Source: an uncultured bacterium
Lineage (GTDB): Bacteria > Patescibacteriota > Minisyncoccia > Phycocordibacterales > GWA1-40-21
Length of the DNA stretch: 64,000 nucleotides
Assembly (NCBI GenBank): GCA_903831305.1
Contig: CAIKXE010000002.1
Coordinates: 15,934 to 79,933, forward strand
Direction of reading: 5' to 3'
Part shown: piece after piece, positions 41,145 to 50,812 of the stretch
Position numbering within the stretch: position 1 is the stretch's first letter
Layout of the letters: each line of letters opens with the position of its first letter
Notes under the pieces: generated by a model
What the model was told of the DNA's origin: nothing
Database searches by the model: none
Seen by the model: only the letters and a program-made list of their open reading frames with translations
Made by a program: the position numbers and the translations under genes

Positions 41145-42209
41145 ATGAAAATCAATTTATCATTTTTTAATAAAATATCACTGGAGGACCAAATCAGTTT
41201 TTCCAAAAATTTGGCGGTACTGCTTCGCGGTGGAGTGACGATCAATGAGGCGGTGGATTCCTTGGCTAGCCAGTCCAAGGGTAATATGCGCAAGGTTTTG
41301 TATCGTATCAAAGGTCATTTGGAAAATGGTGTTTCTCTTTATTCGGCTATCAGTGAAGAACCAGGGGCTTTTGGCCAGATTTTTATGAGTTTGGTCAAGG
41401 CGGGCGAGCTCTCAGGTTCCTTGTCTGAAAACTTGGAGTTTTTAGCCACCTGGCTCGAGCGGGATAGTAATCTGAGGCGAGAGATCAATGGTGTTTTGCT
41501 TTATCCCAAGATCGTTTTGACCGCCGTGGTCCTGCTTGGTGGTGGGTTATCTATTTTTATTTTGCCTAAATTAGTACCGATGTTCACCAGTCTTAACGTG
41601 ACTTTGCCCCTGATTACTAGAATAGTTTTGGCCGTTTCGGTCTTCCTACAGTCTTATTGGGTAAAGGTTATTGTCGGCACTTTCTCCACCATTACCGCCA
41701 CTTTTTTAATTTTTAAAATCCCTGTTATGAAGTACCTTTACCATAAAACCTTGGTTCATTTCCCTTATATTCAGAAATTTATTGTAGGGTATCAGCTGGC
41801 TCTCTTTTCTCAGTTGATGGGGACCCTGCTAAAGTCAGGTATCCCGATCGACGAGGCTTTAGAAGTAGCTTATGTAGGGACATCAAATTTGTATTATAAA
41901 AAAGTATTAAAGGAAATAATGGATCGGACTAATATGGGGGTATCATTGGTGGGAACAATGCATCTTTATCCCGAGCTTTATCCGGCAAACTCTTTGAGTA
42001 TTTTGTCTGTAGGAGAGAGTAGCGGAACGTTGGAGGACTCCTTTTTTAAGATTTCGGAATTTTGGACTAAAGATATTTTGGATCGGACCAAGCTCTTACC
42101 AACCATTATTGAACCAGTTCTTTTGGTAGTCATTGCGGCGGCGGTGGGAATGATCGCTCTTTCTATTGTCATGCCGATTTATAAACTGACCGGAAATTTG
42201 AAGAATTAG
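41145..42209 (+). CDS. PilC/GspF family platform protein
   Basis: GELSGSL, LLYP, GESSGTL, IIEP. Confidence 0.92.
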   Translation: MKINLSFFNKISLEDQISFSKNLAVLLRGGVTINEAVDSLASQSKGNMRKVLYRIKGHLENGVSLYSAISEEPGAFGQIFMSLVKAGELSGSLSENLEFLATWLERDSNLRREINGVLLYPKIVLTAVVLLGGGLSIFILPKLVPMFTSLNVTLPLITRIVLAVSVFLQSYWVKVIVGTFSTITATFLIFKIPVMKYLYHKTLVHFPYIQKFIVGYQLALFSQLMGTLLKSGIPIDEALEVAYVGTSNLYYKKVLKEIMDRTNMGVSLVGTMHLYPELYPANSLSILSVGESSGTLEDSFFKISEFWTKDILDRTKLLPTIIEPVLLVVIAAAVGMIALSIVMPIYKLTGNLKN

Positions 42210-42246
42210 ACAACCTCACTGGGCTAAAGTATGTTATAATAATCTT

Positions 42247-45200
42247 ATGAAGAGAGGTTTTTCTATGTTTGAACTTTTACTCGTAGTAGCTATTGCGGCG
42301 GTGATTTTTACTATTGTGGCCCCGGTGGGTATTAGCCTTTATCGAGCACAACTAGTGGAGGAGGTGCGGAGCAACATTATTGATGCCCTGCAAAAAGCTC
42401 GTCATAACTCTATTTTGCAAAAAGGGGATACGGCTTATGGAGTGCGCGTGGTAGCCGGGAGTTATACTATATTTCAGGGTGTGACATATGACACCAGGAA
42501 TATTGATGGAGATGAAGTTTTCCCGGTTGCCAGTAACGTCTCTTTTTCCGGTTGGCAGGATATTATTTTTGCTAAACTGACTGGCTTACCAAATGCTACG
42601 GGGACCCTGGCTATAAATTATAATGATATGAATCGTGGTATTGCGGTGGATATTTCTGGTGGTATTTCTAAGGTGGATGTGGTGGGCGGGGTGGAGGTGG
42701 TTACCGCTACTTATAGTGTCACTTTTGATGCAAATGGTGGTATTGGTAGTATGTCAGCTCAGACCTTTGATTCTGGGTCCACCGCTAATCTGAGTATTAA
42801 CACTTACACACGCTCTAGTTATGTTTTTGTTGGTTGGGCCACGAGTGTTGGTGGAGCAGTGTCTTATGCCGATGGTGCAAGTTATACTATGGGCTCTGCT
42901 AATGCCACACTATATGCCAAGTGGATAACGGTTCCCGGTGCACCCACTATTGGCACAGCTACTGCTGGTAATGCCACCTCTAGTGTCACATTCACTGCTC
43001 CGGCATCTGATGGTGGGGCAACTATTACTGGTTACACCGTCACTTCTAGCCCTGGTGGTCTCACTGGTACTGGTTCGGCTAGCCCTATTATCGTCACTGG
43101 TCTTTCAAATGGCACGGCCTACACGTTCACTGTCACCGCCACAAACTCTGTTGGCACCGGTACTTCTTCCGTCGCTTCAAACTCCATCATTCCTTCGGCT
43201 ATTTCAGCTGGTGGTCTAGTTTCTTACTGGCCGTTTGACGGTAATGCTAATGATATTATTGGTTCAAACCACGGCACAGTCTATGGTGGAGCATCTCTTG
43301 CTTCTGGTCTTAAGGGGGTCACCGACACGGCCTACAGTTTTGATGGTGTGGATGATTATATCAATGTAAACTCTTCATTTGGTAATCCAAATACAGTTAC
43401 TATTTCAGTTTGGTTTAAAACAAGCAGTAATGGAATTATATTTAATCAACATGATACCGTCTCACCTCCTACTAGCGCAAACTCTCATGTGCCAGCTCTC
43501 TGGGTGATTCCGGATGGTAGGCTTAGGGCTGAGTTATGGTCCGGAAGTATTGGAGCGATTTATAGTTCTAATAGTGTTGCTGATAATAATTGGCATCTTG
43601 CTACTTTAGTTGGTAATACTAATATTCAGTATTTATATCTTGATGGTGTTTTAGTGAATAGTAGAAGTGGTAACCTCAGTCAAAGCTGGTGGGCCAGAAC
43701 TACTTTTGGTGTCGGTTATGCAGCAAACCGTGAGGGCTCTGCTTCCGTTTGGAAATATTTTCCTGGATCGCTTGATCAAGTACATATTTATAACAGGGCC
43801 TTGTCTGGTTCAGAAATTTTGGTTATTTATAATGAGGAAAAACCGACCATCGTTGTCCCTGGTGCGCCCACTATTGGCACAGCTACCGCTGGTAACGCCA
43901 GCTCTAGTGTCACATTTACTGCTCCAGTTTTTAATGGTTATGAAAATATCACTAGCTATACGGTGACCTCTAGCCCGGGTGGCCTCACCGGTACTGGTTC
44001 GGCTAGCCCTATTATTGTCACCGGTCTTTCAAATGGCACGGCTTATACTTTTACTGTTACTGCTACTAATTCAGCTGGTACAAGTTTGTCTTCAGGCGCG
44101 TCCAACACGGTAATGCCGACGGTTGTTTCTGGAGGGCTTGCTTCATTTTGGCCGTTTGATGGTAATGCTAATGATTTGGCATCAACTAGTAATGGAACGG
44201 TTTATGGGGCTACAGCGACAACTGGTACTAGAGGCATAGCTAGTACGGCTTATAATTTTAATGCTAACACTGATTATATAGGAGGATTTGGGGATAATTT
44301 TGACATGGGGACCAATAATCAGACTATCTCTGCTTGGTATAAGGGAGGGACTTTGTCACAGATAGGGATGATTGTTGGTAAATCTCGTTATGCTGGCGGT
44401 GCTGGACGTTGGGCGGTGTATTTAACCACTGCCGGTAAGGTCGGAATGTTTATGAACTGTGGTGGTGCGGATATTGATGGTATTGGAACTAATTCTCGGG
44501 TCATAACTGATAATGTTTGGCATCATATTGTGGGAGTGTGGGACCGAGCCGGTAATTTTACTACTTATGTTGATGGTGTAGCTGATGGAGTAGTATCTAT
44601 CTCATCGTGTAATGGCTACAATATGGATAACCCTTATTACTTTTTGATTGGTACTTATGGTGATGAAACTGGTACGGGTGGTATAAAAACAATTTTGACG
44701 CTCAAGGGTAGCTTGGATCAGATTCGCTATTATAACAGGGCTCTTTCAGCTTCGGAAATTCTAGAAATTTTTAACACCGAGAGCCCTTGGTATAACAGTG
44801 CTTGGGCTTACCGCACCAGAATCACCATTGACCGCACCAAGGTAGCAAGCTCCACTGGCACGTTACTCGCTAATTTCCCCGTACTTATAAGTACTACCAG
44901 TGCCATGTTTAAAGATACGTCAAACAGTGGACACGTGGGGCAGGCGGATGGTGGGGATATTGTTTTCACTTCCGCTGACGGTATTACCAAGCTGGATCAT
45001 GAGATAGAGAGTTATACGCCCGCTTCTGGTAACCTCATCACCTGGGTGGAAGTGCCATCAGTTGCTACCACCACGAACACGGATATTTATATGTATTATG
45101 GCAATGCCAGTGTGGCAAATCAGTGGAATGCCTCAGGCACTTGGGATAGTAATTATAAAGGCGTGTGGCATTTATCTGATGCTGGTAATTCTACTAGTAC

Positions 45201-45873
45201 GGATTCTACTAGTAATGGTAACAATGGCACGAATAATGGTGTGACCGCTACTTCTTCAGGTCAAATAAACGGAGGATCATATTTCAATGGTGCGGGTTAT
45301 ATTAATATTCCTAGTAATTCTAACTTAAATGCTGGCAATAGCGGAACAACTTTGACTGTTTCTGCCTGGGTTAATCCAACAACTGCAGGCACTGATCAGA
45401 CAATTGCTTCAAAGTGGGATTATAATACTCAAGCTTCATGGGGTTTTCAAACAGGGGCAGGAGGTGAAGGTGGTGCAAGTAATTTACAAACATATATTCC
45501 CTCAACTGTTACTGATATAGGAGATAAAAAAGTATGGACGACAGATAATGGGCTATCATCAGGGTCGTGGCAGTATGTTCTTTTTGTTTATGATGGAAGT
45601 CAAACAGGAAATACAAATAGAGTTAAAATATATATTAATGGTAATTTAAAATCTGAAGCATCAGGTGGTACAGTACCATCCTCAGCCTCCGGAGGTTCTG
45701 CTTCAGTTAAAATTGGTAAATTTGGTGGAAACCTCACAAGATATTTTTCCGGTTCAATAGATGAAGTTCATATATCTTCCGTTGCCCGTTCTGCTGATTG
45801 GATAAAGACGGAATATAATAATCAAAGCGCACCGAATACTTTCTACACCATCGGCTCTGAGGTGACGTATTAG
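42247..45873 (+). CDS. 1208-aa pilin: FimT-like body, InlB-B-type repeat, FN3, LamG, FN3, LamG, DUF2341-like, LamG
   Basis: RG|FSMFE; VTFDANGG..LYAKW; two PGAPTIGTATAGN; YWPFDG..YNRALS; NFPVL..DIVF..IYMYYGN. Confidence 0.88.
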   Translation: MKRGFSMFELLLVVAIAAVIFTIVAPVGISLYRAQLVEEVRSNIIDALQKARHNSILQKGDTAYGVRVVAGSYTIFQGVTYDTRNIDGDEVFPVASNVSFSGWQDIIFAKLTGLPNATGTLAINYNDMNRGIAVDISGGISKVDVVGGVEVVTATYSVTFDANGGIGSMSAQTFDSGSTANLSINTYTRSSYVFVGWATSVGGAVSYADGASYTMGSANATLYAKWITVPGAPTIGTATAGNATSSVTFTAPASDGGATITGYTVTSSPGGLTGTGSASPIIVTGLSNGTAYTFTVTATNSVGTGTSSVASNSIIPSAISAGGLVSYWPFDGNANDIIGSNHGTVYGGASLASGLKGVTDTAYSFDGVDDYINVNSSFGNPNTVTISVWFKTSSNGIIFNQHDTVSPPTSANSHVPALWVIPDGRLRAELWSGSIGAIYSSNSVADNNWHLATLVGNTNIQYLYLDGVLVNSRSGNLSQSWWARTTFGVGYAANREGSASVWKYFPGSLDQVHIYNRALSGSEILVIYNEEKPTIVVPGAPTIGTATAGNASSSVTFTAPVFNGYENITSYTVTSSPGGLTGTGSASPIIVTGLSNGTAYTFTVTATNSAGTSLSSGASNTVMPTVVSGGLASFWPFDGNANDLASTSNGTVYGATATTGTRGIASTAYNFNANTDYIGGFGDNFDMGTNNQTISAWYKGGTLSQIGMIVGKSRYAGGAGRWAVYLTTAGKVGMFMNCGGADIDGIGTNSRVITDNVWHHIVGVWDRAGNFTTYVDGVADGVVSISSCNGYNMDNPYYFLIGTYGDETGTGGIKTILTLKGSLDQIRYYNRALSASEILEIFNTESPWYNSAWAYRTRITIDRTKVASSTGTLLANFPVLISTTSAMFKDTSNSGHVGQADGGDIVFTSADGITKLDHEIESYTPASGNLITWVEVPSVATTTNTDIYMYYGNASVANQWNASGTWDSNYKGVWHLSDAGNSTSTDSTSNGNNGTNNGVTATSSGQINGGSYFNGAGYINIPSNSNLNAGNSGTTLTVSAWVNPTTAGTDQTIASKWDYNTQASWGFQTGAGGEGGASNLQTYIPSTVTDIGDKKVWTTDNGLSSGSWQYVLFVYDGSQTGNTNRVKIYINGNLKSEASGGTVPSSASGGSASVKIGKFGGNLTRYFSGSIDEVHISSVARSADWIKTEYNNQSAPNTFYTIGSEVTY

Positions 45874-45909
45874 TTTTTAGTTTGAGTTTTTTAATGATAT
45901 AATTTAATC

Positions 45910-47016
45910 ATGACTATTACTCAGATCAAGCATAGCCAAGGATTTTCTCTTTTAGAGCTGGTTTTGGCGATCGCCATTTTTGCCTTTGGTTCTTTTGCCA
46001 TGGGGGCCATGCTCATTGATTCTAACGTGAGCACTAATGTAAGTATTGAACGTACCGCCGCCCTGCTTTATGCCAAGGAGGGGATAGAGGCAGTGCGGTC
46101 TATCCGGGATAATGACTGGAATACTATCTCTGCTCTTACCGATGGTAATCACGGTCTGAGTATTAATACCGCTAGCAGTACTTGGTCTCTAAGTGGCATT
46201 GCTGATTCATTGGACAGTAAGTTTACCCGGACGGTAAATATCTCAGCTAGTTCTACTGCTTCCTTTTTAAAAAATGTGGCAGTGACGGTGGACTGGCCTC
46301 TGCAATCTGGCAAGCTGGCTACCACCACCTTAAATACCTTGGTGACAAACTGGATTAATGTGCGTAACTTACCGAGCCAAATCCCTACGGATGGTTTAGT
46401 GGCTTATTGGTCCTTTGATGACGCTATGGCCGGTACGGCCGTGGACAGTGTGGGGACAAGTACCGGTACTGTCTATGGTGCTACTTCTACTCCGGGGGTC
46501 AGGAGTTACGGGTATAGTTTTGATGGAGGGAGTGGCTATGTTGATACTAAACAAATTAACTTTAATTACTTAGCAGTGTCTATGTGGTTTTATATGAAAA
46601 CTAATAATGGGACTGGTCAGTATGTATTGGCAAGTTCCGACGATGGGTCAAGTAGAAATTGGGCATTGTATTTTAACCCATCAGGTGCGCCGAACATTAT
46701 TCGTTTCTTTGTTTTTGTGAATAGTGTTGCTCAAATGTATGATGTTCCTTTTATTCCTTCGTTAAACACTTGGTATCATGTAGTAGCCACTGCTGATGGC
46801 TCATATTTAAAAATATATGTAGATGGTGATGTTCAATCACCGCCATTTGCTTATTCTGGGCTTATTGATAAAACAGGTGTTACTGTAAAGATAGGAAAGG
46901 GTTCTAATTCCTACTCACCGAATTATTTTGATGGCAAACTTGATCAAGTCCGTATTTATAACCGTGCGTTGACGCCTTATGAAGTAGAGGTGATTTATAG
47001 TGAGGAGAAGCCCTAA
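45910..47016 (+). CDS. PilV-like pilin with C-terminal LamG domain
   Basis: QG|FSLLE, EGIEAVRSIRD, GLVAYWSFD..IYNRALT. Confidence 0.88.
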   Translation: MTITQIKHSQGFSLLELVLAIAIFAFGSFAMGAMLIDSNVSTNVSIERTAALLYAKEGIEAVRSIRDNDWNTISALTDGNHGLSINTASSTWSLSGIADSLDSKFTRTVNISASSTASFLKNVAVTVDWPLQSGKLATTTLNTLVTNWINVRNLPSQIPTDGLVAYWSFDDAMAGTAVDSVGTSTGTVYGATSTPGVRSYGYSFDGGSGYVDTKQINFNYLAVSMWFYMKTNNGTGQYVLASSDDGSSRNWALYFNPSGAPNIIRFFVFVNSVAQMYDVPFIPSLNTWYHVVATADGSYLKIYVDGDVQSPPFAYSGLIDKTGVTVKIGKGSNSYSPNYFDGKLDQVRIYNRALTPYEVEVIYSEEKP

Positions 47017-47041
47017 TAATTAGGTGGTATAGTATAATAAT

Positions 47042-47431
47042 ATGCAGAAAAATTTTAAAGAATGGCATAAGAATAAAAGTGATATACATGAAAATAAGCA
47101 AAGACCTTTTTTTCATGAACAAGAGGTCTGGTTTGCTTCACTTGGATCAAATATTGGTTTTGAACAGGATGGTGTTGGGGAAAGTTTTTTAAGGCCAGTG
47201 GTTATTATTAAGAAGTTTAATAACGAAATATTTTGGGGTATTCCGACCACTAAGAAAAATAAAAAAGGAGTGTACTATTTTAGATTTAATTGGGGTAAGG
47301 ACAATGGCAGTTCGGCAATTCTTTCTCAAATAAGGTTGGTTGATAGTAAACGGTTATTTTATAAAATAGGCCAGATTAGTGATAAAGATTTAAAAGAAAT
47401 CAAAAAGCGTATTATTTCTTTGTTAGAATAA
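47042..47431 (+). CDS. PemK/MazF family endoribonuclease, no adjacent protein antitoxin
   Basis: EVWFASLGSNIGFEQDG..RPVVII, IPTT, SQIRLVDSKRL..IG.I. Confidence 0.88.
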   Translation: MQKNFKEWHKNKSDIHENKQRPFFHEQEVWFASLGSNIGFEQDGVGESFLRPVVIIKKFNNEIFWGIPTTKKNKKGVYYFRFNWGKDNGSSAILSQIRLVDSKRLFYKIGQISDKDLKEIKKRIISLLE

Positions 47432-47480
47432 TACGCTTTTTGTTTGGACCCCCTTGCGGGGGAGGGCCGAAGCCATTTAG
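47432..47480 (-). ncRNA. Candidate small RNA convergent on the MazF gene (3' end unknown)
   Basis: Minus strand GGC-UUCG-GCC and CCCCC-GCAA-GGGGG just downstream of a minus-strand promoter. Confidence 0.55.
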
Positions 47481-47486
47481 AGTATA

Positions 47487-47514
47487 AGTATAACAAACAA
47501 ATGATTTGTGTCAA
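47487..47514 (-). promoter_or_regulatory. Sigma70-type promoter on minus strand
   Basis: TTGACA-16 nt-TATACT with extended TG. Confidence 0.7.
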
Positions 47515-47549
47515 GTCTAAAATAAGGTTATAATATCAGTATAAAATAC

Positions 47550-48812
47550 ATGAAAAAAAGAGGGTTTACATTACTGGAGGCGGTTTTATATCTGGCGATC
47601 GCTGGGGTGGTCATCTACTTTATCAGCGGGTTTGCGTTCAACGCCATTTTTGGTAAAGCCAAGATTGAATCCATCCAAGAGGTGAGTGAGGGTAGCCGGT
47701 CCGTGCTGGACCAGATCAGTAGCGCCATCAGTAATTCTTCTGAGATCAATGGTTTGGAGGTGGACGTTCCGCCAGGGGAAACTGTTCCTTGGTATGATGT
47801 CTCTTGGATCTATCGAAAAAAGATTACTATTGATAAAACCAAGGTACCTAATACTGATCAGACTAATTTTCCGGTGTTGGTGTCACTCACTGGTCTCTCA
47901 AATATAAATGCAAACGGTACCGATATTAGATTCACTGATTCAACCGGTACTGGAGAACTAGCTAGAGAAATTGAATCATATTCCGCTGGCACATTGGTGG
48001 CTTGGGTCAAAGTGCCCGTACTTTCTACTTCTGCCAATACGGATATTTATATGTATTATGGCTCTTCGGGAGCCTCAGAGCCTTCGCCAAGATCGGCCTA
48101 CGGTTCACAAAAAGTTTGGGATGATGGTGGGAGTAATTATTTTAAAGGCGTGTGGCACTTAGCCGACCCGACAAATCCAGTTGATTCTACAGATGCGAAT
48201 AACGGGACAAACAGTGGATCGACAGCTACGGTTGGTCAGGTTGATGGCGGTGCATATTTTACTTCAGCAAATTATATCTCTCTTGGAGCATCAAATTTAT
48301 TTACTCCAACAACAGCATCAACTTTAAGTTTTTGGGTCAAAACATCCAACACGCACTACCAAAGATTATTTGTTTTTGAAAGGGCGTCTGGTTCATCAGC
48401 TATGGCTTTAAATATTGCAGTTAGTACTGGCGCCGGTGACGATAATAACGGGAAACCTTATGCTTTTTATCGCAATAGCTCAGATATATTGCTTTCAATG
48501 ATTGGTCCGTCGTCAATTGCTGATGGCAACTGGCATTACTTATCATATACTATTAATAATACAGTGGGCAGTTTATATGTCGACGGAATATCAGCTGCAA
48601 CTGCCAGTGATATTAGCGTTTCAAAAACTTTCAATTTTTCGAGCGATAATGCTCTTATTAACTATTTTACTAGCAATGGCCTTAATCCGGGATATCTCGA
48701 TGAGTCCAGATTTTCTAACACTGCCCGCTCGGCGGATTGGATAAAAACAGAATACAATAACCAAAGTTCACCAGCGACTTTTTACACCGTGGGGTCTGAG
48801 GAGACACCCTAG
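47550..48812 (+). CDS. PilW-like pilin N-terminus fused to DUF2341-like and LamG domains
   Basis: RG|FTLLE; W.YRKKITID..NFPVL; ARSADWIKTEYNNQ. Confidence 0.86.
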   Translation: MKKRGFTLLEAVLYLAIAGVVIYFISGFAFNAIFGKAKIESIQEVSEGSRSVLDQISSAISNSSEINGLEVDVPPGETVPWYDVSWIYRKKITIDKTKVPNTDQTNFPVLVSLTGLSNINANGTDIRFTDSTGTGELAREIESYSAGTLVAWVKVPVLSTSANTDIYMYYGSSGASEPSPRSAYGSQKVWDDGGSNYFKGVWHLADPTNPVDSTDANNGTNSGSTATVGQVDGGAYFTSANYISLGASNLFTPTTASTLSFWVKTSNTHYQRLFVFERASGSSAMALNIAVSTGAGDDNNGKPYAFYRNSSDILLSMIGPSSIADGNWHYLSYTINNTVGSLYVDGISAATASDISVSKTFNFSSDNALINYFTSNGLNPGYLDESRFSNTARSADWIKTEYNNQSSPATFYTVGSEETP

Positions 48813-48813
48813 T

Positions 48814-48934
48814 CAACCTCTCCCGCCAGCCGACTGGTGACCTCCCCTCATCTGATGGGGGGGGTGCGGAGAGTAACGTCTTCTCCCTCACATTAGTTAA
48901 GGGGAGGGTGTCGTTCTGACGACCGGAGAGGTTG
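48814..48934. repeat. Double-hairpin palindromic element, divergent member
   Basis: Perfect arms caacctctcc/ggagaggttg with two internal C-run/G-run hairpins. Confidence 0.75.
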
Positions 48935-48979
48935 TGTTTGTGTGTTGGTTTTGAGAGCGGATGTGGTATAATTTAAAAT

Positions 48980-49414
48980 GTGGAGAAGTATTTTAATCAG
49001 CGGAAAAATAAGCAAAGGGGTTTTTTGGTCTTGACCCTAGTGCTTCTGGTCTGTGCCACGGTTCTCGCTATCGCTTCTGGTATCTTTCTCCGTTCCATCG
49101 GCAAAGTAAGTGAGACCGGTGATTCAGAAAACTCTTTTAAATCCTGGAGTGCGGTGAATGCTTGCGGGGAATATGCCCTGGGGCGTATGGCCTCTATTGC
49201 TAGTGGTCAGCCAGGCTGGGCCTATCAAGGAAATGAGCTTTTGACCATCGGGGGTGAGACATGCTATATTTATGGCATAATTACCCAGGGAGAAAGCAAA
49301 ATCATTCAGGCTTCAAGTACGGTTTCCAATTTTACTAAAAAGATTGTTATTGAAGTGGCCACTAATACTCCCAAGGTCGTGATTAGTTCCTGGCGGGAAG
49401 TGGCGGATTTTTAG
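48980..49414 (+). CDS. Minor pilin (PilX-like)
   Basis: RG|FLVL, ACGEYAL, SWREVADF. Confidence 0.78.
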   Translation: MEKYFNQRKNKQRGFLVLTLVLLVCATVLAIASGIFLRSIGKVSETGDSENSFKSWSAVNACGEYALGRMASIASGQPGWAYQGNELLTIGGETCYIYGIITQGESKIIQASSTVSNFTKKIVIEVATNTPKVVISSWREVADF

Positions 49415-49426
49415 TTTAAATAGTTT

Positions 49427-50812
49427 ATGGATTATAAAGAAAAATTAAGAGAAATTCTGAGTGTAAAGTTTGATAATGCCTTTGGTTTAGACATTGGTGA
49501 TGGCTCCGTGGAGATTATTCAGTTGCAAAAGTTTTTTCGCTACTCTATTACCACTTATGGTCGGGAAGAATTGTCAGCGGGAGTTGTAGAAAACGGCCGA
49601 ATCCTTGATCCTAATGCTCTGGCGGAGAGCCTTAAAAAGTTGCTTCGCAACGCCAAGCCCAAGAGAGTGTCCACTAACAAGGTGATTGTTTCCTTGCCAG
49701 AGTCTCAGGTCTTTACAAATTCTTTTGAAGTTGATTCCAAGCTTAAGGCCGGAGCTTTATCAAATGTTATTTTAGAAAAAGTTGGCCTTTCAATGCTTGT
49801 TAATGTGGATAAAACATATTGGGATTATATGGTCAGTCCTTTGCCGGACAAGACAAAAAAACTGGTGACTTTTTTCTGTGTTCCAAAGGAGATCGCAAAT
49901 AGTTATGTCAAATTTTGTAATTCTATCGGGCTTGAGGTGGTGTCCCTCTGTCTGGAGCCACTAAGTTTGGCTAGAGTCATTTTAAAAAGTGCTTCTAGAC
50001 AAAGCCTGATAATTGATATCGGTTCTGGTGCTACCAACCTTAATTTTTTTGATAGTAATGATAAGTTAAATGTCTCTATTACTTTGCCGGTTGCGGGAGA
50101 GCAAATGACCAAGGCTATAATGGATAGGTTAAAAATAGAGAGGGACGAGGCAGAGACATTAAAGGTCAAATTTGGTTTTCAAGATGTACCAGAAAACACC
50201 ATTCGCCCTATTATCCAGCCCGTTTTTGAGGATATCATGTCTGAGATAAAAAGCGCTATTACTTACTATGAGGAATCATTTAAACAAAAGCTAGATGATA
50301 TTTACCTTATTGGTGGCTCGGCTCTTTTGCCGGGGTTATTAGAGGCAATGCGCGTGGGTTTGGCAAGGACAGTTGTTTTTGGTGCTTGTACCCATAATAT
50401 TGATTTTACAGTTATGACTGGTAAAAATAATCAGTTTGTTTTATTTGCCAATGTTTTAGGTTTGGGGATACTTGGCTCAAGCACTGGGTATCGGGACATT
50501 AACTTTTTAAAGAAGATGCCACGAGTAGAGTCAAATTCAGTAAATAAGCTTAATCTGCTAAAATTAGGATATCTGAGTAAAGTGAATACCTTGCGTACCA
50601 TTATGAATAATAAGTTGATTTTGATATTGATGATCGCCGTAATTGCCACCATTTTTTACTTTATGCTTTTACAGATAGAAAGTTATGAAAAGAAATTGGT
50701 AGAAGAAAATACCTTGAGTGAGGTGTTACTACCTTCACCGGTAAGCCGTGGTGGAGTTTTGTCTACTAGTACTGAGGCAAACATTATTAGCACCTCAACC
50801 ATAATCAAATGA
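49427..50812 (+). CDS. PilM-like protein with C-terminal membrane extension
   Basis: FGLDIGD, IDIGSGAT, LIGGSA, then DINFL and a TM helix. Confidence 0.85.
   Translation: MDYKEKLREILSVKFDNAFGLDIGDGSVEIIQLQKFFRYSITTYGREELSAGVVENGRILDPNALAESLKKLLRNAKPKRVSTNKVIVSLPESQVFTNSFEVDSKLKAGALSNVILEKVGLSMLVNVDKTYWDYMVSPLPDKTKKLVTFFCVPKEIANSYVKFCNSIGLEVVSLCLEPLSLARVILKSASRQSLIIDIGSGATNLNFFDSNDKLNVSITLPVAGEQMTKAIMDRLKIERDEAETLKVKFGFQDVPENTIRPIIQPVFEDIMSEIKSAITYYEESFKQKLDDIYLIGGSALLPGLLEAMRVGLARTVVFGACTHNIDFTVMTGKNNQFVLFANVLGLGILGSSTGYRDINFLKKMPRVESNSVNKLNLLKLGYLSKVNTLRTIMNNKLILILMIAVIATIFYFMLLQIESYEKKLVEENTLSEVLLPSPVSRGGVLSTSTEANIISTSTIIK

Follow-up and report, generated by a model that had tools for sequence, protein, structure and literature searches.

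Within the window, the whole 64,000-nucleotide stretch of Patescibacteriota DNA analysed here, a 129-aa open reading frame on the plus strand (47042-47431) encodes a member of the MazF/PemK toxin family, as established by its Pfam match and its fold. The match to PemK_toxin (PF02452), the only family that Pfam returned, has an E value of 4.7e-10 and scores 40.1 bits against a cut-off of 23.1; PADLOC and NCBIfam gave no family above cut-off. The protein model (pLDDT 80) has MazF/PemK structures as its best matches (Z 14.0, rmsd 2.0-2.1, 101 aligned; Foldseek E 1e-6 against MazFs), with Z scores of 9.6 for CptN and 6.2 for ToxN. In alignment with B. subtilis MazF, R51 matches the RP motif, and we take R51 and T69/T70 to be the catalytic residues. 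Among 107 full-length genes of the clade, 100 retain the presumed catalytic Arg and 90 have Thr or Ser at the presumed catalytic site, the other 17 being unparsed. All 107 full-length homologues carry the motif F/Y-x-x-W-x-x-x-K (here F5-x-x-W8-x-x-x-K12) in an N-terminal helix, which spans residues 5-18 in the model. Ordinary MazFs appear to lack this helix, because the structural matches begin near residue 19-23. Net charge does not separate the RNA-linked clade from ordinary MazFs.

The genes on either side of the toxin gene both encode prepilin N-methyl motifs and LamG domains, and 25 nt separate the stop of the upstream pilin-like gene (47016) from the toxin ATG. Sequence and Pfam thus agree with the description in an earlier note on this DNA, a 129-aa MazF-family gene between two pilins with no antitoxin ORF in the 25 nt before it. 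The surroundings (41145-50812) form a type IV pilus-like cluster of giant prepilin-leader proteins with LamG and DUF2341 modules, inside which the toxin-RNA module is inserted. Nearby, at 48813-48940, lies a 128-nt multi-hairpin element with a long inverted repeat (-69 kcal/mol); it is REP- or MITE-like and has four partial copies on contig C4. A predicted toxin promoter with an extended -10 box (TG-n-TATAGT, 47025-47033, plus strand) can be read 8 nt before the ATG, and the toxin mRNA is predicted to be near-leaderless. A similar -10 box occurs 4-9 nt before the ATG in 47 of the 103 homologues with enough upstream DNA. Our promoter scan requires a -35 box, so the toxin's own -10 box is absent from its list. 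Boxes of this kind stand a few to ~15 bases before the start codon in four consecutive genes of the window (45895-45910, 47025-47042, 47525-47550 and 48965-48980), which suggests that these genes have leaderless or near-leaderless mRNAs.

Facing the toxin gene is a predicted sigma-70 promoter on the minus strand (47487-47514) that agrees with the consensus at 11 of 12 positions, with TTGACA (47514-47509), a 16-nt spacer and TG-n-TATACT (47492-47487). Of 14 promoter-like sites across 3.5 kb, it ranks first. The earlier note had drawn attention to this promoter and to the lack of a minus-strand gene for it to serve, and both observations hold. We considered a 51-codon minus-strand ORF (47514-47359) as the promoter's client and rejected it, because its first codon falls within the -35 box and hence before the predicted start site. 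That start site, the seventh base after the -10 box, opens a predicted single-stranded 6-nt leader, CUAAAU (47475-47480; family consensus ACAAAY). The leader is followed by hairpin P1, GGC-UUCG-GCC (47465-47474), the dinucleotide CU and hairpin P2, CCCCC-GCAA-GGGGG (47449-47462), all on the minus strand. The cUUCGg and GCAA tetraloops lie where they had previously been placed, read on the minus strand, and are strand-specific in homologues. The cUUCGg loop of P1 occurs in 88 of 102 parsed loci, and the P2 stem is 4-12 bp long in homologues.

Beyond P2, a 42-nt inverted repeat (P3, 47401-47442) covers the toxin's last codons and stop. It folds on both strands, with U-runs on both, and is predicted to be a two-way intrinsic terminator; because of these U-runs the RNA probably ends near 47400, not far into the toxin gene. 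Promoter and terminator together predict a small RNA of ~80 nt (47400-47480, minus strand; leader-P1-P2-P3) with a fold of -32.5 kcal/mol, our candidate antitoxin, which overlaps the toxin ORF by about 31 nt. P3 is the only region surely common to the toxin mRNA and the small RNA. A look-up of RNA sequencing runs covering 46800-47800 listed none. The antisense entry into the toxin's 3' end that had been proposed does exist, but it is short, and the overlap is itself the P3 hairpin, which had been missed.

P1 and P2 alone (53 nt) are not unusual when compared with shuffles (z -0.70); the full 87 nt including P3 give z -5.84. Because the small hairpins by themselves do not beat shuffles, the proof that P1 and P2 are not chance has to be comparative. 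An RNA model (R1) built without the window sequence finds the locus at 36.1 bits (E 1.1e-8), its only strong match in the window. Rfam has no family near threshold here or in nine homologue loci, and the Rfam pemK RNA motif (RF02913) is absent among matches up to E 10 in 46900-47700. A genome-wide search for RF02913 gave no match, but the controls of that search also gave none.

Conservation was assessed on 110 distinct homologue genes chosen by protein alone (E 1e-5), and in the initial homologue searches every homologue with a named source was from Patescibacteria. A parser recovered the -10 box, P1 and P2 at 102 of these 110 loci. Of the eight loci that it missed, two are truncated at the edge of a contig, and the hairpins can be made out by eye in every one of the eight, which brings the count to 110/110. 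A weak MazF match without the element (26%, locus L050) fell below the E limit that defines the set. Among 105 parsed homologues, the distance from the -10 box to P1 is exactly 12 nt in 93, the -35 box reads TTGACA or TTGACT in 83, and the promoter score is at least 10 in 79, versus 20 of 2,200 random stretches. The start-site base is A in 88 of 94 homologues, and the leader begins with ACA in 76 of 94. Farther out in the clade, at loci with 33-45% identity or a broken gene, the convergent promoter and hairpins are visible by eye in 24 of 24 cases, with diverging sequences. The earlier note's expectation that promoter and hairpins would be conserved downstream of CPR homologues is borne out by the parser (102/110) and by eye, the convergent element following 143 of 144 Patescibacteria clade genes, in counts that come from loci related by descent and therefore overstate independence. 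The genome's only other PemK gene (contig C9), 45% identical, has the same convergent promoter and P1 and a longer P2. A protein profile matches 1,798 clusters at 50% identity (E up to 1e-10), a count made by protein only.

The terminator is more variable. P3 is present in 83 of 98 loci, a count that leaves out four loci with odd stops or long inserts; it includes the toxin stop in 79 and has a U-run on the RNA strand in 77 and on both strands in 66. In 14 of the 15 loci without P3, a U-run follows directly after P2, 1-15 nt from the stop. Some loci have doubled RNA units. In L097 a single transcript holds the P1-P2 unit twice, a closing pair being altered, promoter-RNA units form a tandem pair in L010 and apparently in L032, and P2 is partly doubled in L082. 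Up to eight module matches can occur in one small genome (G013); in places two lie less than 1.5 kb apart, and every copy has an RNA subtype of its own. L004/L041, L085, L101 and L108 are further multi-copy loci. Module insertion sites include the ends of housekeeping operons.

Loop identity and base changes both point to an RNA read from the minus strand. Among 73 distinct cores, a GNRA or cUUCGg loop closes P1 on the RNA strand in 64 and on the mRNA strand in one, and a GNRA or UUCG loop closes P2 in 59 and none, respectively. In 19 equal-length sequences all 190 cells pair, and five of seven P2 pairs change on both sides; the P2 covariation score was reached by none of 500 shuffles, and slid controls were 34-58% paired, statistics that ignore kinship and use a structure derived from the same 19 sequences. 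Covariation was counted on these 19 rows because MAFFT alignments (78 RNAs; 26 rows) misaligned P2. P1 is invariant in the 19-row set and so contributes no covariation evidence. The covarying hairpins anticipated earlier are hence found as compensatory changes in P2, but not in P1. Might the transcript instead be a short mRNA for a peptide antitoxin, translated from an AUG in the leader (MASALPRK..., 17 aa here)? An AUG does precede P1 in 57 of 94 loci, but 31 of 94 have ACG, the peptides would range from 10 to 56 residues, and no reading frame relative to the toxin stop is preferred (20/19/18). Stem lengths also vary in 2-nt steps. Given the ACG variants, variable lengths and equal frame use, we rejected this reading, which we regard as exceedingly improbable.

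The RNA unit is linked to one clade of MazFs. A metagenome search by RNA motif only returned 119 loci, of which 101 face a clade toxin and three are too short; 12 of the other 15 retain the toxin's C-terminal codons, some as internal deletions. Across 61 related genomes, model R1 made 20 matches (three of them training sequences) in 15 genomes, all among the 26 that bear the toxin and none among the 35 without it. Nineteen of these matches adjoin the toxin and the remaining one adjoins a toxin remnant. The model is narrow, detecting RNAs in 15 of the 26 toxin genomes and missing divergent subtypes that are visible by eye. Selection by Pfam across the phylum gave 29 PemK loci, 19 ordinary MazFs and 10 clade members, and the element is present in nine of the 10 clade members and in none of the 19 ordinary MazFs. 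All 19 ordinary MazFs have an upstream ORF that ends within 23 nt of the Pfam match; it is 70-115 aa long in 17 of them, and many are MazE- or Phd-like by eye. No small upstream ORF is common to 103 clade genes, whose upstream neighbours are unrelated genes. RNA subtypes cluster on the toxin tree, which came from a quick search and leaves many forks unresolved (nine changes versus 48.8 when shuffled), as expected from linkage and with no proof of co-evolution. No viral contigs were matched by a single protein query, and two were matched by an alignment query. The gene L028:413-919, with an NYN domain (PF01936, E 2e-12), adjoins a clade toxin, and the 70 nt that follow the gene hold a TTGACA promoter pointing towards it and hairpins that differ in sequence. 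This gene is possibly a second nuclease with a convergent RNA and may hint that the layout extends to other nucleases.

The earlier note recognised that its RNA reading would fall if a protein antitoxin encoded elsewhere neutralised the toxin, in which case the downstream element might be only a terminator block or a DNA operator. No gene of the MazE family (PF04014) occurs in the genome (760,696 bases, 98.7% complete), a search that covered this one antitoxin family. A single homologue of 103 (L075) has an upstream ORF that presumably belongs to an antitoxin-like family. The fixed distance of the promoter (93/105), the strand-specific loops and the covariation all indicate an RNA, transcripts have been mapped at two Campylobacter homologues (below), and the upstream neighbours of clade genes are unrelated. 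We therefore think control by a distant protein antitoxin highly improbable.

Exceptions to the linkage are uneven. One intact-looking clade gene, L295 (G187:C12:3084-3374, 137.6 bits), has no element in the 170 nt downstream and no strong model match in its genome, which counts against an absolute dependence of the toxin on the RNA element. In the L295 protein, PS replaces the usual LT/LS after the conserved Pro. The toxin has been lost and the RNA kept in 12 remnants among the 119 RNA-first loci and in L243, whereas a toxin without RNA occurs once in 144. That RNA without toxin is commoner than toxin without RNA is the asymmetry expected for a toxin and its antidote. Six loci (L134, L180, L194, L226, L243 and L267) have a toxin inactivated by internal deletion beside an intact RNA gene, and several deleted toxins join N-terminal and C-terminal KDF-like stretches. 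Protein and RNA could alternatively form a stable ribonucleoprotein with another job, for example phage-sensing or regulatory, the protein not being poisonous alone. L295 would fit such a role, the up to eight matches per small genome suggest a mobile or defensive cassette, and homologues occur on prophages and plasmids. Yet toxins are lost with the RNA kept far more often than the reverse, the presumed catalytic Arg persists in 100 of 107 genes, and no PADLOC model matches. On this evidence we judge the ribonucleoprotein explanation improbable.

Clade homologues also occur on plasmids of Campylobacter, Helicobacter and Nitratiruptor and in CJIE4 prophages. Of six such homologues that we retrieved, one is interrupted by an internal stop, and the other five show hairpins and a -10 box in the convergent orientation. 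The pVir plasmid of C. jejuni 81-176 encodes a PemK homologue (NC_008770 30634-31038; 37% identical, E 9e-12) with the same N-terminal W..K helix and no upstream antitoxin ORF. Downstream of this gene lies CJpv3, a Northern-detected sRNA of 77 nt on the minus strand (31119-31043), as tabulated by Dugar et al. 2013 (PMC3656092 Table S12). CJpv3 is convergent, has three hairpins and ends 5 nt short of the toxin ORF. Its tabulated start equals the start that we had derived beforehand from the -10 box, with spacing as in the Patescibacteria loci. The start-site step in Table S5 of the same paper (PMC3656092) is 16,164 for CJpv3 versus 28 for the toxin mRNA. At the RM1221 CJIE4 homologue an antisense start was also mapped, weaker than the toxin's (74 vs 221; PMC3656092 Table S4), and it lies behind the same promoter sequence as in locus L118; the paper's sRNA list returned nothing for CJIE4 terms. 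By eye, CJpv3 is unlike the Patescibacteria RNA in sequence and lacks ACAAAY-GGC-UUCG-GCC. The cjrA/cjpT pair of the C. jejuni 81-176 plasmid pVir is reportedly the subject of Shen et al. 2016. Passages in later papers state that pVir of 81-176 carries CjrA, the RNA antitoxin of a type I system (PMC7826846, PMC10470494, bioRxiv 2020.01.02.893479). CJpv3 is probably CjrA and the pVir PemK gene probably cjpT, and the pVir pair and the Patescibacteria pairs very probably belong to the same family.

Other relatives vary in architecture. The toxin is in three pieces on many large Campylobacter plasmids (H24-H40, H44; L116), and the same toxin domain is fused to a cytidylyltransferase in Campylobacterota and to an HTH domain in Bacillota. 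On a Lacticaseibacillus plasmid (L241:1-1256 and downstream) a DUF3800 gene precedes a PemK gene whose product shares the N-terminal W..K helix, and Rfam gave no match there; DUF3800 genes are elsewhere noted to go with RNA motifs (PMC5737381, in part).

So, is this an RNA-antitoxin system? The candidate reading of the earlier note gains support from the conservation, the compensatory changes in P2, the lack of a MazE-family gene and, as far as the published tables go, the convergent RNA of Campylobacter. Taking toxin binding and antisense action together, we put the probability that the locus is an RNA-antitoxin system at roughly 85%. Between the two modes we favour direct binding, although both may act: the RNA would use its conserved 5' domain to bind the toxin protein and so neutralise it, a proposal to which we give about an even chance. 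The toxin would be an active ribonuclease and the RNA would be made from its own near-consensus promoter, with both transcripts ending at the shared hairpin P3. Leader, P1 and P2 would be read by the toxin, probably via the N-terminal helix that is invariant in the clade. Were the RNA gene lost, or its transcription halted, the toxin would be freed, and addiction or abortive infection would follow. Pairing across the short overlap may add a second layer. More speculatively, the 5' ACA-type leader might occupy the active site and mimic a product without being cleavable, because several MazFs cut just before ACA (PMC7781912, in part) and a transcript that starts at the leader's A could fill the site uncut. 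The idea is speculative because the window locus has CUA in place of ACA, as CJpv3 has GUU, and we think it unlikely.

One argument for binding is where the conserved bases lie. Over 91 loci, pairwise identity is 84% in the leader and P1, 42% in the last 16 coding bases and 36% in the promoter spacer, and a cis-antisense RNA could work without any conserved sequence. Pairing nucleates poorly at closed tetraloops. That the loops of P1 and P2 are predicted closed tetraloops thus argues for binding and counts against antisense. Binding would also suit the overlap, which, barring read-through of the mRNA, is little or none in the 15 of 98 loci without P3 and includes none of the ORF for CJpv3, and the repetition of the P1-P2 unit in two loci, L097 and L010. 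There is precedent, as MazF-fold toxins bound by RNA exist in ToxN and CptN (PMC5086642, in part). Against binding stand the convergent layout, kept everywhere and not required by pure protein binding, and the antisense start at the CJIE4 homologue, weaker than the toxin's in the published table (74 vs 221). Citing papers also call CjrA an antisense type I antitoxin.

The rival is a type I-like mode in which the convergent RNA, being abundant, pairs with the 3' end of the toxin mRNA, either at P3 or, on read-through, along the whole 3' UTR. RNase III would then degrade the duplex, and the sole role of P1 and P2 would be to stabilise the RNA. The convergent layout is invariant, and 83 of 98 loci have 24-40 nt of ORF overlap. 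A duplex across P3 (-67.5 kcal/mol) would be more stable than the separate folds (-19.3 and -32.5 kcal/mol). Read-through of P3 by the mRNA would make the whole RNA complementary, and a ribosome on the last codons could block P3; the ORF runs through the RNA's 5' domain in L248, L251, L253, L254, L255 and L259, and the pVir mRNA has no U-run after its hairpins. RNase III is present in the window genome and in 60 of 61 genomes, and CjrA is described as antisense type I (PMC7826846, PMC10470494, bioRxiv 2020.01.02.893479, in part). This has to be set against the conserved bases, which lie outside the overlap (84% vs 42%), against the folding of the overlap into strong hairpins in both partners, and against its range from about none to the whole RNA. 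We regard antisense action as plausible but on balance doubtful, and direct binding remains our preferred reading.

The module bears on how MazFs are understood. MazF is the textbook toxin with a protein antitoxin, and annotation files genes of this clade as 'type II' despite there being no partner gene. The RNA described here is a candidate partner for them, and its family is missing from Rfam. Little is known of regulatory RNAs in Patescibacteria, where the module would be a frequent means of addiction or defence. If binding is confirmed, the clade would show how a MazF fold passed from control by a protein to control by an RNA, as has been asked ever since ToxN was seen to share the fold, and it would offer a two-part system of less than 500 bp that E. 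coli could host for tests.

How does the system compare with those already known? Like the pVir case, in which a PemK homologue is faced by a convergent three-hairpin RNA, it pairs toxin and RNA tail to tail. CjrA is classed as type I antisense and stands as a lone example on a plasmid, whereas the Patescibacteria system is chromosomal and widespread, and its conserved part lies outside the overlap. An RNA-controlled PemK probably has a published precedent in cjrA/cjpT, and the idea is not wholly new. On the Patescibacteria family, searches of an open-access library yielded no paper. AbiF with AbiFr/RCd22 is likewise a ribonuclease toxin bound directly by a cis-encoded structured RNA that was first noticed as a gene-associated motif, but it has a HEPN fold and an unrelated RNA, and no convergent terminator-sharing layout is seen in the available parts of the reports (PMC12737573, bioRxiv 2025.04.15.648962).

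The type III systems ToxIN, CptIN and AbiQ/antiQ share a MazF-fold endoribonuclease and a cis-encoded structured RNA with no protein antitoxin, and their RNA subtypes track toxin clades, as here (PMC5086642, PMC7781912). Type III RNAs are upstream on the same strand, as tandem arrays of pseudoknots in one operon with the toxin, from which a terminator separates them and which processes the repeats (PMC5086642). Here the RNA is downstream on the opposite strand, has its own promoter and is built of tetraloop hairpins. It is a single unit at this and nearly all loci, doubled only in L097 and L010. Given the closed tetraloops an H-type pseudoknot in the small RNA is unlikely, in a structure for which only nested folds were computed. 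The toxin belongs to the same superfamily as CptN and ToxN, and its fold is nearer MazF (Z 14.0) than CptN (9.6) or ToxN (6.2).

With type II mazEF/pemIK the system shares Pfam family, fold and the presumed catalytic Arg and Thr. It differs in the absence of an upstream antitoxin gene and in its extra N-terminal helix. Among type I systems, txpA/RatA and bsrG/SR4 have convergent 3' overlaps. These two and SymE/SymR share with our locus a convergent small RNA that overlaps the toxin mRNA, antisense to it by about 31 nt here. Unlike in those systems, the toxin is a 129-aa MazF-fold protein and not a membrane peptide, and the overlap is short, self-paired and variable. The system is neither type II nor canonical type III; it is type III-like if binding holds and type I-like otherwise. 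Tentatively, at somewhat less than even odds, we propose a fourth protein-RNA toxin-antitoxin architecture, in which a MazF clade of ~1,800 50%-identity clusters swapped MazE for one downstream convergent tetraloop RNA, which would bind the toxin through the N-terminal helix and block it with the leader. If so, this would be a common toxin-antitoxin module of Patescibacteria, CjrA/CjpT would be reclassified from type I to type III-like, and the clade would represent a living intermediate between type II MazF and type III ToxN/CptN.
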